Both the position numbers and the translations under genes were made by a program. A DNA stretch of 64,000 bases from positions 38,929 to 102,928 of IMG/VR virus record IMGVR_UViG_3300033145_001595, one strand, 5' to 3'. Positions 10,547-48,017 of this stretch are shown piece after piece; within the stretch, counting starts at the first letter, position 1; every line of letters begins with the position of its first letter. The notes below the pieces were generated by a model, which was not told the origin of the DNA, did not search any database, and saw nothing but the letters and a program-made list of their open reading frames with translations. Origin of the DNA: a virus.

Positions 10547-11521
10547 TTAGTACTCCCCATATGGTGTCCTACTCATTTTGGCAGAATCCAACCTAGGAAA
10601 GACAAACTTCTGCAAAAATTCCATTGACGAGAACTTAGAAATGGATACCATATGTGCCCTCTCCCCCCGAATACCCGGAGAATTTAATATGTCTTTCCAG
10701 TCCTCAGCCCAATGCCTACCGTATCGTTCTTTCAACCCTGCACACCAAAAATTCTCATAAATACTATCATCAAATAAAATCCTAGACGAATACACCCTAT
10801 TAATTACCTCATGCCACTTAGGCGTGCTATGTGGACCAAATCCCTTTATACCATGAAAATGATGGGCTTTTGTATCAACTAATATAGGCACATCTGCAAA
10901 CCAAGCCTTCATACACATAGTAGCATCGCTGTAAGACCAATAGCCGGGCAAATTGGCCCATCCATTAAGGTAATCATACACTGCCTTCTTCATGGTCATA
11001 CCACACGCATACGAGCCATTACGTCGTTGGTAATGAACAGGATGCTTATTCACTGACATGTACCATCGCCATTTACTTGCAGCAAACGTAAATCCACCTC
11101 CATAGTTCGTTCCTCTGACCGGAAGGTCCGGTAGTGGTGTCCAGGGGTCGGTAAGTCTGTGCTGTGTCAATCCAGGTGTTATGATACTGTCTGGATGCTC
11201 ATTAACGGATGCCTCTAATGATTCAAAGAAGCCGGGAGTTGGCCATACATGGGCATCTATGAAACAAATAGTATCTCCAGTACTAAGTTGTGCTCCCATC
11301 CTTCTACAATTTGAAACTCCCCCACGAGTTTCTTTTAATATAGGAAGGAACGTAGGATAACGATCTGCAAAACCTAAAAGAATTTCTCTTGTTTTGTCTG
11401 TTGAACAATCATCTATAATTATTAACTCGTGTGGGGACTCCGGTAAAACATCACATATAGCCTGCATCGACCGGGGAAGCCATTTTGCTTCATTATAAGT
11501 AGGTATGACAATGCTTAACAT
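10547..11521 (-). CDS. GT-A fold glycosyltransferase with DxH motif
   Basis: SIVIPTYNE, IIIDDCSTD, FIDAH, GYWSYSD. Confidence 0.88.
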   Translation of the reverse strand: MLSIVIPTYNEAKWLPRSMQAICDVLPESPHELIIIDDCSTDKTREILLGFADRYPTFLPILKETRGGVSNCRRMGAQLSTGDTICFIDAHVWPTPGFFESLEASVNEHPDSIITPGLTQHRLTDPWTPLPDLPVRGTNYGGGFTFAASKWRWYMSVNKHPVHYQRRNGSYACGMTMKKAVYDYLNGWANLPGYWSYSDATMCMKAWFADVPILVDTKAHHFHGIKGFGPHSTPKWHEVINRVYSSRILFDDSIYENFWCAGLKERYGRHWAEDWKDILNSPGIRGERAHMVSISKFSSMEFLQKFVFPRLDSAKMSRTPYGEY

Positions 11522-12759
11522 TATTCTTCTCCAGTGTAAAACTTAACAATAGTGTTAACAACATATTTAACTTTTTCACGCGGAATAGTAGGCCACATAG
11601 GCAAAGATAAAATTCTTTCGGACATATGATCTGTAATTGCAAATTCATTTGTAATTTCAGTATTATTATTTCTTGTTTTGTACATAGGCATTGTATGTAA
11701 TGGATTAGGATAGTGAACACCTGTATGCACATCATGTTCTTTCAAGTAACTGACAAGTTTATCTCGCTGTTCAGCTAAAATAACAAAATGATGATAAACT
11801 GAATCATAATTTGTATTTGACAAACTATTATATTTAATATGGTCATTGCCAACAAAACTTATTGGTATACGATGTTTAAGAAAATAATGATAATACCATT
11901 GTGCTACCACTTTTCTTTTTAAGTTATTATATGAAAGTTTAGTTAATTTTCTTATTAATACAGCAGCTTGAAATTCATCAAGTCTACTATTATAACCAAG
12001 TAACGTATGTTCATTTTTTGCAGATTGTCCATGATGTTGTAACTGTTTTATTTTTAAAGCAACAAAATCAGCAAAACTAGAAGATTCCACATTGTTTACT
12101 GTAATTACACCACCATCTCCATAACAACCTAAATTCTTTATTGGCCCACAACTAAAACAACCAATGTCCCCAACACTTCCAAGTTTTTGTATTGGTTTGT
12201 TATTACTATTATTAAAATAACACCCACCATGTGCATGAGAACAATCCTCAATTAAAAACAATTTATGATTGTCCGCTATTTCCCGTAAACACGTAACAGG
12301 TTCAATATGATAAGAAGCATTTGAACTTACCCAAGTATAAATATCAGCAGGGATACCATGCATATGAACAACTAAAATAGCTTTTGTTCTCTTTGTTATT
12401 TTACTAATAACTTCTTCCACATTAGGGCCACACGATACCCTATCCACGTCAACTAAAATAGGTGTGGCTCCAACATGATAGATAGCTTCCAGGTCTGCCG
12501 CGAAAGCATTGTCCTGTAGGATTACCTCATCACCAGAACCTATGCCAAGAGCCAGCATTCCAAGGATAAGCGCATCTGTACCGCTTGCAACACCTACGGC
12601 GTATGTGGAACCTATGTACTCTGCAAATCGTGTCTGAAAGGCTGACAGATACGGACCTTTGAGTAGACGACCAGAATTCATTATATTAGTCAAGTCATTA
12701 CTAATTTCATTTTTAATATAATCATCTTCTACTGATAAATCTAATAAAGGCACATACAT
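11521..12759 (-). CDS. DegT/DnrJ/EryC1/StrS PLP-dependent sugar aminotransferase
   Basis: GVASGTDAL, IEDCSHAHG, catalytic Lys in SCGPIKNLGCYGDGG, GYNSRLDEFQAA, LSLPMWP. Confidence 0.93.
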   Translation of the reverse strand: MYVPLLDLSVEDDYIKNEISNDLTNIMNSGRLLKGPYLSAFQTRFAEYIGSTYAVGVASGTDALILGMLALGIGSGDEVILQDNAFAADLEAIYHVGATPILVDVDRVSCGPNVEEVISKITKRTKAILVVHMHGIPADIYTWVSSNASYHIEPVTCLREIADNHKLFLIEDCSHAHGGCYFNNSNNKPIQKLGSVGDIGCFSCGPIKNLGCYGDGGVITVNNVESSSFADFVALKIKQLQHHGQSAKNEHTLLGYNSRLDEFQAAVLIRKLTKLSYNNLKRKVVAQWYYHYFLKHRIPISFVGNDHIKYNSLSNTNYDSVYHHFVILAEQRDKLVSYLKEHDVHTGVHYPNPLHTMPMYKTRNNNTEITNEFAITDHMSERILSLPMWPTIPREKVKYVVNTIVKFYTGEE

Positions 12760-12777
12760 TTTTACACTCTTTTCTAT

Positions 12778-45486: not shown

Positions 45487-45790
45487 TAGCTGCCTCTTCC
45501 CTAGCTATTTGTTCTCTTGCCATAATAACCATTTGCCTATCCATATGTTCCGCCCGTCGCTTATTCCTTTTAAATTCTTTTTTTATCTGTCGATAACTCT
45601 TAATAGATGCTTCTTGCTTAACCTTTCTGAATAATTTAGCTGCATCATGCTTATGTTTTGCTCCACCAACTAAATCATTTCTACACTCTCGACAAACAAA
45701 AACAGAACTACCATCAGGAAAAACTTGCTTATACGCAACACCACTAATTACTTCCTCACAAGAATTACAAATAATCGCTTCATTACTCAT
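45470..45790 (-). CDS. Small zinc-finger protein
   Basis: MSNEAIICNSC...VCREC. Start coupled to the upstream stop. Confidence 0.55.
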   Translation of the reverse strand: MSNEAIICNSCEEVISGVAYKQVFPDGSSVFVCRECRNDLVGGAKHKHDAAKLFRKVKQEASIKSYRQIKKEFKRNKRRAEHMDRQMVIMAREQIAREEAANETNS

Positions 45791-46185
45791 TATCCTTCTC
45801 CTACAGGGGATTGAACCTCTGCCCTTCCAGTAGCATAGTAACCGTAAATAACTCCATTTGTGCTTTTTACTTGCACCCAATACCTAGCGTTTGTAGTTGT
45901 TGTTATTGTAGCTGTTTGTGCAGATGTGGCGTAAAACAAAAGAGTTGCCACATTTCCAGAAACAGTAACAGATGTTGCCGTTAACGTCAAGTCCGGCGTA
46001 CCTCCATACTGACTTCTAGATATGAGCAATTCCCATGTCCATGCATCCGCACCAACTGGAAAATCCAAATCTACCCCCGACTGTTTACGTATTAAAATGA
46101 CCCTAACTGCCCCACCTGCGGGGGGCCAACGTCCATTCCGTTTAATAGGTCCAGTACATTTTGTATAATCAAGCTCAACTACCAT
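45790..46185 (-). CDS. Putative virion structural protein
   Basis: Beta-rich and Thr-rich, in the structural operon. Confidence 0.55.
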   Translation of the reverse strand: MVVELDYTKCTGPIKRNGRWPPAGGAVRVILIRKQSGVDLDFPVGADAWTWELLISRSQYGGTPDLTLTATSVTVSGNVATLLFYATSAQTATITTTTNARYWVQVKSTNGVIYGYYATGRAEVQSPVGEG

Positions 46186-48017
46186 TTATCTTACCTCCCC
46201 TTCAATCTCTGGTGCTGAAATAATAACTTCAATTTCTGGTGCATCTACATTATCCTCAATTCCCGGTCCTACTACAACATACATATAACATGGAACTACT
46301 AACGCTGGTTCCGGGGACGATGATGTGGTGCTAGAACTACTACTGCTTGATGAACTTGTAGGTGAACTACTTGAGCTAGATGAACTACTAGAACTACTGC
46401 TGCTTGTAGGTGAACTAGATGAACTACTACTACTTGATGAACTTGTAGGCGAACTACTCGAACTGGATGAACTACTACTACTTGTAGGTGAACTAGATGA
46501 ACTACTACTACTTGATGAACTTGTAGGCGAACTACTCGAACTAGATGAACTACTACTACTTGATGAACTTGTAGGCGAACTACTTGAACTGGACGAACTA
46601 CTACTACTACTTGTGGGTGAACTAGACGAACTTGAACTACTACTACTACTTGTGGGTGAACTAGACGAACTTGAACTACTACTACTACTTGTGGGTGAAA
46701 ACTAGACGAACTTGAACTACTACTACTACTTGTGGGTGAACTACTTGAACTGGACGAACTACTTGAACTACTTGAACTGGACGAACTAGATGAACTAGTA
46801 GTAGGGGAACTAGACAACCAACCACTAACTCGTGACCCATCTTGTATCCAAATTTCACCCTCTGCAACTATTTCATCTACAGCTAAATCATCTATAGCTT
46901 GAACAATAAAAACCTTAGACGGCGTTGAATTATACAATCTACCTAAATCAAGTTCAGCAACATAAAGACTTACATCATCATCACCCATGTCTGTATTTTC
47001 AACTGCTTCTAACTTTGGATCGACACAGGAACCTAAATCTACTTCCCACGTATCATCATCAAAATCAAAAACCTTATCATTAGACGGATCAAGGAACCTA
47101 AAATATACAGTTTTTCCAACCGTATACTCAGTAAAAAAATATTCCAAATCACCAATTAATGGAGTAGGCGTAGTACTACTTGAACTAGACGAACTACTAC
47201 TACTACTCGTGGGTGAACTGCTCGTGCTACTGGAACTACTGGACGAGCTACTTGTACTTGTAGTGCTACTTGTGCTGGACGAACTACTTGTAGTGCTACT
47301 TGTGCTGGACGAACTACTTGTAGAACTACTTGTGCTGGACGAACTACTTGTAGAACTACTTGTGCTGGACGAACTACTTGTAGAACTACTTGTGCTGGAC
47401 GAACTACTACTAGTTGTTGTAGTACCACCGCCTTCGTTCAGGTCCAGGTTGGCAACGTCCATGTCGCCTTTGCGCGTAGAGTATTGTTTGCCGTACGCAT
47501 TGCAGGCGTACCGATAGCGGTAGCTGGATGGCGTGCTGCAATCAGTTACGCTCAGGTCGCCACCAGATATCAGGCTCGTACGAGCGGCATTGTCGTATAC
47601 GTCGATTTCGCAGTTAGTACCGTCCCACGTAAACGTAGTGTAGTACCACGTGTCGCTTGCTGCCCCTATGCTGACACTATCGGAAAGGCCATCCTCATTG
47701 TTGAATGCTCGGATGTAGACAATGAATCCGGCGCCGTAGTAGACGTCACCACCCATTGCCTGATCGTCGTTCACGTTCCAATTATCAAACGTATCGTGGG
47801 TGTTGCTGACACCAATAAACACGTGCCCAAAATACGCATTGGTCTGGGCGGTGGCCCTTACGTTCACATCCCAATCGATGCCTGATGAGATATTGCCTGC
47901 GCCCTTATCCTCATAGACATAGTTCGCAGTCGCGCCGTCCGTCAACTCTATGAGGTTGGCACCCACGCTTATTTGCGTGCCGGATTTCGACCACGTTGTC
48001 CAATCTACGTATGCCAT
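46186..48017 (-). CDS. Multidomain Ser/Thr-rich (mucin-like) virion protein, frameshifted by a 2-nt insertion near 46700
   Basis: Beta-rich N-domain, S/T tract, a domain paralogous to 48517-48852, then a second S/T tract. Removing the extra AA gives 609 aa ending at TAA 46186-46188, abutting the next ATG. Confidence 0.72.

Follow-up and report, generated by a model that had tools for sequence, protein, structure and literature searches.

Glycosylation of phage particles has been established experimentally for only a few mycobacteriophages, according to PMC12619734 and PMC11256854. These papers, citing Freeman 2023, describe glycans on the capsid and on the C-termini of tail-tube proteins of Che8, Corndog and Myrna, with phage-encoded glycosyltransferases (GTs) and a proposed role in shielding. 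Beyond phages, Ser/Thr-rich disordered regions of streptococcal membrane proteins are O-glycosylated (PMC12041528), and the S-layer O-glycan of Kuenenia stuttgartiensis has five units of N-acetylhexosamine (HexNAc), of which four are GalNAc, and a probable dimethyl-deoxyhexose, with up to 5 methyl groups (PMC5088730). Here we describe a candidate system for glycosylation of the virion in an uncultured tailed phage known from the 102,928-bp virus record IMGVR_UViG_3300033145_001595. The window analyzed comprises 64,000 nucleotides (bases 38929-102928 of the record), and coordinates given for this phage are window positions. On its minus strand, one array of genes encodes both structural proteins with long serine/threonine (Ser/Thr) tracts and a block of sugar enzymes. 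From this gene content we consider it reasonably likely that the phage attaches O-glycans to the proteins of its own virion, within the cytoplasm of the host and either ahead of assembly or in its course.

As in the mycobacteriophages, phage GTs are combined with structural proteins bearing C-terminal candidate acceptor extensions. The locus differs from the descriptions given in the citing papers in three respects: (i) the host probably belongs to the Planctomycetota rather than the Actinomycetota; (ii) in place of the capsid subunit, the candidate acceptors are mucin-like tracts of 65-210 residues on tail-tube paralogues and on a ConA-like head protein; and (iii) the enzymes resemble family GT27, are partly fused to a radical-SAM domain, and are accompanied by a full amino-sugar and methylation set. 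Particular to the locus are three GT27-like domains (two of them radical-SAM-fused), a graded triplication of the tail tube, a full sugar-tailoring set, and modules shared with Planctomycetota prophages. The idea of virion glycosylation would thereby extend to another host phylum, another enzyme family and larger acceptors, namely mucin-like tracts of 100-200 residues on tube paralogues. The streptococcal and Kuenenia systems differ from that of the phage in acting outside the cytoplasm on envelope proteins, and the streptococcal enzymes have other folds.

The virus record is estimated to be 84% complete, has a GC content of about 38% and contains two tRNA genes but no terminal repeat. Among deposited phage genomes no close relative was found (best capsid match 34% identical), and a single-protein capsid search of IMG/VR returned no relative. 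A series of 38 genes, all on the minus strand, extends from 48017 to 10547 with gaps of at most 214 nt, in the order portal, capsid and tail genes, tail-tip genes and then, directly, the 11-kb sugar block. Between the tape-measure gene and the last GT gene (10547), gaps do not exceed 22 nt. Promoter-like and terminator-like sites showed no enrichment across the 38-gene array. A preliminary description of this DNA had placed tract proteins and glycan genes in one minus-strand operon. The 38 packed genes bear this out, and all the parts it listed were recovered, at most about 30 bases from where it had put them.

Near-pure Ser/Thr(Pro) tracts were found in four proteins:

28987-29697, minus strand: tail-tube paralogue 2, with a free C-terminal Ser/Thr tail of about 110 aa (sequence reading)
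29719-31095, minus strand: tail-tube paralogue 3, comprising a tube domain, a Ser/Thr/Pro tract of about 200 aa and a C-terminal domain with 14 Cys (sequence reading)
34271-35245, minus strand: ConA/LamG-like head-region protein of 324 aa, encoded beside the capsid gene, with a free Ser/Thr tail of some 65 aa at its C-terminus (sequence reading)
46190-48017, minus strand: multi-domain 572-aa protein with two Ser/Thr tracts (the second frameshifted near 46700)

The tracts occupy 28987-29337 (117 aa) in paralogue 2, 30025-30660 (212 aa, followed by the Cys-rich domain) in paralogue 3, 34271-34480 (70 aa) in the ConA-like protein, and 47148-47435 and 46297-46829 in the 572-aa protein. Read in frame, they add up to about 540 residues, among them 370 Ser, 107 Thr and 28 Pro; all six Ser codons are used, AGT accounting for 49%. 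This agrees with the several hundred Ser/Thr residues and the mixed Ser codons reported in the preliminary description. Its count of four virion-operon tract proteins also stands, although the 572-aa protein is a putative virion component only and one of its tracts is frameshifted. The tracts are built from imperfect tandem units of 30-78 nt. As the identity of tracts in different genes is only 74-91% over the longer matched stretches, they are not an assembly duplicate. All of them start with TTTT(T)SSS and end with (S/T)(A/E/P)P, a pattern noted also in L243 (one of the relatives treated below) and P0123. A candidate acceptor peptide of the tract type reads TTTTSSSSTSSS. Two neighboring genes encode proteins with short C-terminal forms:

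28578-28964, minus strand: tail-tube paralogue 1, without a tract, ending in TTTVA (phrog_1407; family of 717 members)
31103-31525, minus strand: tail terminator, ending in TTTTAP (PHROGs)

Such endings might represent acceptor tags of minimal size, or seeds from which tracts expand. Most of the 717 members of the tail-tube family are 120-130 aa long, and several further ones end in Ser/Thr tails.

In the tract at 46297-46829, two extra T were found at about 46695-46705 (agttTTcac, compared with agttcac in the next 39-nt repeat copy), so that the called 572-aa open reading frame (ORF) reads the second half out of frame. Past about 46700, the Ser/Thr frame runs on to a short C-terminal domain with its end near 46190; the out-of-frame reading stays open as well (VVVVQVRL...). 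The 2-nt shift may stem from an error in sequencing, may be a genuine mutation or may mark a site of slippage.

Possibly, the tracts are plain disordered spacers or entropic bristles, unmodified or modified by host enzymes, and the sugar block has an unrelated task, remodeling a host glycan (of the S-layer or an envelope polysaccharide) or sustaining the sugar-nucleotide pools of the infected host. We regard this as unlikely, though it is the alternative that deserves most weight. Poly-Ser/Thr linkers are common in secreted bacterial proteins, and the interdomain tracts of paralogue 3 and of the 572-aa protein do link folded domains. The tracts of paralogue 2 and of the ConA-like protein, however, are free C-terminal tails; they have nothing to tether and are therefore not linkers.

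The enzymes of the block provide further evidence. Five GT2-like Pfam matches occur in the 103-kb genome, all of them in the 11-kb sugar block; the preliminary description had spoken of five intact GT-A domains, of which two proved weak at the Pfam level. Three of the five (GT_A and both GTs of a fusion protein) are GT27-like, with DxH instead of DxD, WG..D/E and H-x-FR motifs:

10547-11521, minus strand: GT_A, a soluble 324-aa GT27-like GT with DAH at 89-91, candidate initiating peptidyl O-HexNAc transferase (Pfam GT2, 1.9e-27)
18494-21913, minus strand: 1139-aa fusion of a radical-SAM/SPASM domain (CxxxCxxC) to two GT27-like domains, with DAH at 578 and DCH at 906 (Pfam, motifs)

By sequence, the best solved relative of GT_A is the polypeptide GalNAc-transferase (ppGalNAc-T) 6s22 (E 2e-14); the alignment spans residues 3-243 and takes in DAH as well as the His further downstream. 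In a family alignment of 27 sequences (A5), D89, H91 and H223 are at least 90% conserved and align to DAH and GHVFR of 6s22. The A5 profile matched sixteen ppGalNAc-T sequences across the catalytic domain (E 9e-44 to 2e-37); ordinary GT2 structures mostly scored 1e-25 or worse, and mostly over the N-terminal 120 residues or so only. GT_A was modeled by AlphaFold2 with the A5 alignment (pLDDT 85.7, pTM 0.88), a single-sequence fold (pLDDT 32) having been discarded. With this model, the top 50 PDB matches in Foldseek were all ppGalNAc-Ts of family GT27 (E 3.5e-20 to 5e-16, TM 0.70-0.79, about 320 columns). The family consensus WG..D....L.AW aligns with the Gal/GalNAc-T motif WGGENxExSFRxW.

GT27-type enzymes are otherwise characterized in animals and apicomplexans, and a literature search found no description of GT27-like enzymes in phages. 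The phage enzymes share with human GalNAc-T2 (4d0t) and Toxoplasma GalNAc-T3 (6s22/6s24) the GT-A fold, DxH, the His of H-x-FR and WG..D/E, and their presumed acceptors are likewise rich in Ser/Thr. They differ in sequence (15-19% identity) and are predicted to be cytoplasmic, not Golgi-resident. Neither a type II membrane anchor (sought as hydrophobic segments) nor a ricin-type lectin domain (sought with Pfam) was found in GT_A, which consists of the catalytic domain only; for this reason, we call the enzymes GT27-like and not members of GT27. The plant-type HPAT family was not found in a search whose control was also silent. The motifs and fold of the GT27-like domains suggest that these probably put the first HexNAc-type sugar on Ser/Thr of the tracts.

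The remaining genes for sugar modification are the following:

11521-12759, minus strand: DegT/PseC-like pyridoxal-phosphate (PLP) sugar aminotransferase (Pfam 7e-90; NCBIfam PseC 1.7e-51, below cut-off)
12778-13833, minus strand: Gfo/Idh/MocA NAD oxidoreductase, candidate nucleoside diphosphate (NDP)-sugar dehydrogenase feeding the aminotransferase (Pfam 3e-15)
13852-14631, minus strand: class I S-adenosylmethionine (SAM) methyltransferase (Methyltransf_24), 259 aa (Pfam; a homologue follows the GTs in contig L083)
14632-15570, minus strand: GT_B, GT2-like with an AHWEDDD motif, candidate chain-extending transferase (Pfam 2.7e-4; family alignment A6)
15580-16470, minus strand: GT_C, a paralogue of GT_B with an AHWDDDD motif (weakly GT2-like; family alignment)
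16467-17105, minus strand: possible methyltransferase, marginal (Pfam Methyltransf_23, E 0.0096)
17118-18491, minus strand: 457-aa protein with a C-terminal SAM methyltransferase domain, the N-terminal 290 aa being without assignment (Pfam Methyltransf_11, 1.1e-15)
21898-22272, minus strand: Cys-rich 124-aa protein (N-terminus resembling that of a GT in locus L187)
43637-44614, minus strand: short-chain dehydrogenase/reductase (SDR) resembling NDP-sugar epimerases/4,6-dehydratases, upstream of the portal (Pfam; LegB/RmlB-like)

With the adjacent Gfo/Idh/MocA and DegT genes, both enzyme classes of an NDP-amino-sugar pathway are present, at scores that reach no equivalog cut-off; the oxidoreductase has a weak NCBIfam match to UDP-GlcNAc 3-dehydrogenase (3.5e-9). 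A PseC-like DegT protein together with a LegB/RmlB-like SDR fits the synthesis of deoxy-amino sugars. This pair and the epimerase-like gene upstream of the portal had been recognized in the preliminary description. It had also named three methyltransferase domains, two of which are clear and one marginal at the Pfam level. The only solved relative of GT_B and GT_C is PglI (1e-9), an enzyme that branches a GalNAc-rich glycan. Directly upstream of the SDR gene, at 44614-45486 on the minus strand, lies a gene for a 290-aa protein with a very hydrophobic segment (Kyte-Doolittle (KD) 3.4) and no family match.

Transmembrane segments were absent from all block enzymes, and neither a flippase nor a polymerase nor a priming transferase turned up among them. 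The lack of these components and of any membrane-anchored enzyme argues against a block that merely accompanies unmodified spacers and serves host glycans or sugar pools. So does its position, packed onto late tail genes and not placed with early or lysogeny genes. Soluble enzymes would also suit GTs that hypermodify the phage DNA, glycosylating hydroxymethylated bases as a protection against restriction, as many phage GTs do (Pyle 2024 and Markine-Goriaynoff 2004, as cited in PMC12619734). This is very improbable here: no thymidylate-synthase-like hydroxymethylase, TET/JBP enzyme or C5 DNA methyltransferase was found in the 84%-complete genome, the TET/JBP negative being weak because the TET control was silent. 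Moreover, protein glycans are a better match for enzymes of amino-sugar synthesis and methylation, for a GT27-like fold and for a place among late structural genes.

We identified eight relatives with a capsid identity of at least 59% (L001, L243, L244, L245, L248, L258, P0309, and P0310). The Ser/Thr tail on the ConA-like protein is kept in 8/8 of them, with a length of 57-121 residues. Tract-bearing tube paralogues also occur in L243 and L248, the latter having three tube genes, and the SDR gene before the portal is kept in L243, L244 and L248. A word-based search with the ConA-like 324-aa protein gave two homologues, and more exist in the fetched loci. For the GT fusion, twelve homologues were found. 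For one of them (1094 aa, 45% identical) and for a capsid protein with 62% identity, a single 92,694-bp contig is listed as the source, which indicates a second near-complete genome combining a GT fusion with a related capsid. In P0282 (840 aa), a GT-GT pair is fused to a class I methyltransferase domain, which ties the block's own methyltransferases to the pathway of the GTs.

In what could be seen of relatives with capsid identities of 50% or less, tracts and GT27-like genes are mostly both missing. Capsid homologues (39-48% identical) are also carried by 12 of 132 genomes of one Planctomycetota class, that of G006, with no tracts and no GT27-like genes. These genomes fall in the G013-G026 range plus G102 (e.g. 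G026:C5:242443-243501 and G015:C2:103198-104256), and eleven of them measure 1.5-2.5 Mb. A homologue of the 380-aa protein is adjacent in all nine fetched capsid copies, two of which lie inside contigs of 107-278 kb; the copies may represent a conserved prophage-like element. In five genomes that hold GT loci, no capsid of this phage's type was found.

The succession of tracts and GTs was found again in L083, an IMG/VR contig without BLASTP-detectable similarity to the phage outside the sugar genes. Its tracts are found in (i) a head-closure protein with a Ser/Thr tail; (ii) a paralogue of the tail terminator that combines a LamG-like domain with a tract of 120 residues; and (iii) a tip protein. 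It also encodes a plain terminator beside the tract-bearing paralogue, two tube paralogues, and a tape measure. Immediately after the tract proteins come a GT-GT protein with 41% identity, a protein homologous to GT_A (31%) and one homologous to the 259-aa methyltransferase.

Among cellular sequences, the closest homologues of the DxH GTs come from metagenome-assembled genomes (MAGs) labeled Brocadiaceae, Brocadiales, Brocadiia or Planctomycetota, and in most cases a GT_B homologue follows within a few kb. In at least eight loci (L163, L166, L170, L172, L176, L183, L187, and L188), a gene for a tail-like protein stands directly upstream of the DxH GT. These tail-like proteins end with a Thr/Pro-rich linker of 60-130 residues and one to three Cys-rich domains; one such domain, in L166, matches the C-terminal part of tube paralogue 3 with 36% identity. 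A large terminase gene is adjacent at L188, and L166 weakly matched a minor tail protein (E 7e-6), so the Planctomycetota loci look like prophages or their remnants. Given their GC content of 65-73%, as opposed to 38% in the phage, they indicate shared modules and no specific host. The domain at the C-terminus of paralogue 3 (29719-30024) has about 100 residues and about 14 Cys, ends in ...CP.G.Y....C....(V/I)T(V/I) and belongs to no Pfam family; it recurs after Thr-rich linkers in L163, L166, L170, L176, L183, L187 and L188.

The recurrence of tracts followed by GTs in L083 and in eight prophage-like loci is a further point against an accidental neighborhood of spacers and sugar genes. On the other side, the closest cellular GT homologues belong to Planctomycetota, a phylum in which the S-layer glycan is methylated and heavily O-glycosylated (PMC5088730), and this suits enzymes that act on host glycans.

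The fusion protein suggests yet another possibility. Its N-terminal 440 residues match peptide-modifying radical-SAM/SPASM maturases (PapB 5e-24, nif11-type, SCIFF, and CcpM), all below cut-offs (Pfam Radical_SAM 29.2 bits with a cut-off of 29.5; NCBIfam PapB 85 bits with a cut-off of 340), and CNLTCDYC is present. With the maturases PapB (ranthipeptide), SCIFF and CcpM and with the glycocin enzyme SunS, the locus shares a CxxxCxxC core, a Cys-rich SPASM-like region, GT-A domains and Cys-rich polypeptides nearby. Unlike those systems, the domain is fused to two GT27-like domains in a virion operon, and no leader-peptide-type small precursor is evident. The fusion and the 124-aa protein might together be a peptide-maturation machine of glycocin or ranthipeptide type, which acts on the Cys-rich domains (by thioether cross-links and S- or O-glycosylation) and not on the tracts. 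Besides the radical-SAM matches, a weak family hit to the S-glycosyltransferase SunS (4.5e-8) points this way, and so does the constant presence of Cys-rich domains alongside the linker upstream of the homologous GTs in the Planctomycetota loci.

Nevertheless, we find such a role doubtful as an alternative to glycosylation of the tracts. In L083, the GT-GT protein lacks a radical-SAM domain and the two tract proteins read have no Cys-rich domain, while virion tracts are present. Over its first 52 residues, the 124-aa protein shows 50% identity to the start of a 921-aa GT2+GT64 protein at L187 (L187:4146-6911). Being fused to a GT there, this part probably belongs to the GT machine as an accessory module, split or fused, and suggests an enzyme module instead of a substrate. 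In addition, the GT fold is closest to the Ser/Thr-directed GT27. The two ideas overlap, since both involve modification of virion proteins, and peptide maturation may be an added function.

Several results weigh against self-glycosylation of the virion. In the closest relatives, the contigs reach no further than the tape-measure gene, leaving the GT region outside the view, and the 24%-complete fragment of L006 carries tracts without a GT. Among loci with strong matches to the GT27-like profile, a strict Ser/Thr tract lies within 10 kb in only 3/15 viral and 3/39 genomic ones (Fisher p 0.08 and 0.11). Chondroitin polymerase scores near the ppGalNAc-Ts on the A5 profile, as the sole polysaccharide enzyme to do so, and the Gal/GalNAc-T motif is degenerate in GT_A, where it reads WSYSDATMCMKAW. 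The major capsid protein carries no tract, the only head-side tract being that of the ConA-like protein beside the capsid gene, and in the assembly a frameshift interrupts the second of the two tracts of the 572-aa protein.

Since the family-wide test was not significant, we claim no family-wide rule; the GT27-like family clearly has other acceptors. That most of its members in other phages and genomes have no tract nearby also favors a view of tracts and sugar block as unrelated. A looser tract threshold yielded many antisense or high-GC artefacts and was applied only after sequence reading. The preliminary description had proposed co-occurrence across relatives as a check. Tracts and GTs do occur together in L083 and in the Planctomycetota loci, the 92.7-kb contig combines GT and capsid only, and both features are absent from distant relatives; the test across the whole family did not extend this pattern. 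Taken together, the soluble block enzymes, the GT27-like fold, the maturase fusion, the conserved tracts and the recurring layout support a link between tracts and sugar block. The earlier proposal of a glycan-coated head and tail is upheld in so far as this link has computational support, and only in part as an interpretation, the capsid protein being without a tract.

Self-glycosylation of the virion could proceed as follows. The SDR (43637), Gfo/Idh/MocA and DegT enzymes would convert a host NDP-hexose or NDP-HexNAc into deoxy or amino sugars. The three GT27-like domains would transfer the first sugar to the tracts, as polypeptide GalNAc-transferases do on mucins, and GT_B and GT_C would extend or branch the chain. 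Two or three methyltransferases would O-methylate it. The radical-SAM/SPASM domain would act on the same polypeptide substrates and might cross-link the Cys-rich display domain. The outcome would be a tube of bare and tract-bearing paralogues, together with a head-associated protein, carrying a mucin-like glycan brush that could serve in shielding or adhesion of the particle. The pathway appears self-contained, and the radical-SAM fusion points to combined protein modification.

The composition of the Kuenenia glycan matches the enzyme classes found here (GT27-like GTs, methyltransferases, and a dehydratase-like SDR), a match that is suggestive only. The homologues in MAGs labeled Brocadiales or Brocadiaceae do no more than hint at a link of the phage to Kuenenia-type hosts. 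A more far-reaching version, which we put forward as speculation and think unlikely in its entirety, is that a mixed tube of three paralogues bears Cys-rich adhesins stapled by the radical-SAM/SPASM domain and a dense brush of methylated mucin-type O-glycans with amino sugars, started by cytoplasmic GT27-like enzymes, and that this brush copies the methylated, GalNAc-rich surface glycan of a Planctomycetota host of the Brocadiia class. If true, the particle would blend into or stick to the glycoprotein matrix of its host, and mucin-type initiation enzymes, thought to be eukaryotic, would be a widespread phage invention or acquisition. Confirmation of virion glycosylation itself would provide soluble mucin-type GTs compatible with the bacterial cytoplasm, along with natural acceptor tags, both useful for glycoengineering. 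It would also bear on the shielding or anchoring of phages in biofilm and granule communities.

The genes for head and tail morphogenesis that complete the array include:

41381-42841, minus strand: portal (Pfam/PHROGs)
37794-39203, minus strand: XkdF-type protease (Pfam/PHROGs)
35834-36967, minus strand: HK97-type major capsid protein, no tract (Pfam 1.3e-58)
25750-27879, minus strand: tape measure (Pfam PhageMin_Tail)
22276-27879, minus strand: tail-tip genes (543, 355 and 241 aa) and tape-measure protein (PhageMin_Tail and array position)

Outside the array, a plus-strand ORF of 830 aa at 5175-7667, which converges on the end of the GT block, has weak, sub-threshold Pfam matches to the large terminase. 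Between its N- and C-terminal terminase matches lie LAGLIDADG_3 and a weak Hint match, an apparent interruption by an intein. At 1368-4403 (plus strand), pieces of an SbcC-like ATPase (1368-2426 and 3744-4403) flank an SbcD-like phosphoesterase (2474-3469), and a weak radical-SAM match was obtained at 485-1330. The genes for tRNA-Leu(UAA) and tRNA-Lys(UUU) adjoin that of a serine recombinase of the resolvase type (52443-52613 and 52821-53513, minus strand). Finally, a region of higher GC content near the contig end contains tandem-repeat arrays at 61164-61502 (19-41-nt units) and 63923-64000 (12/37-nt units), which may be origin or iteron-like repeats.

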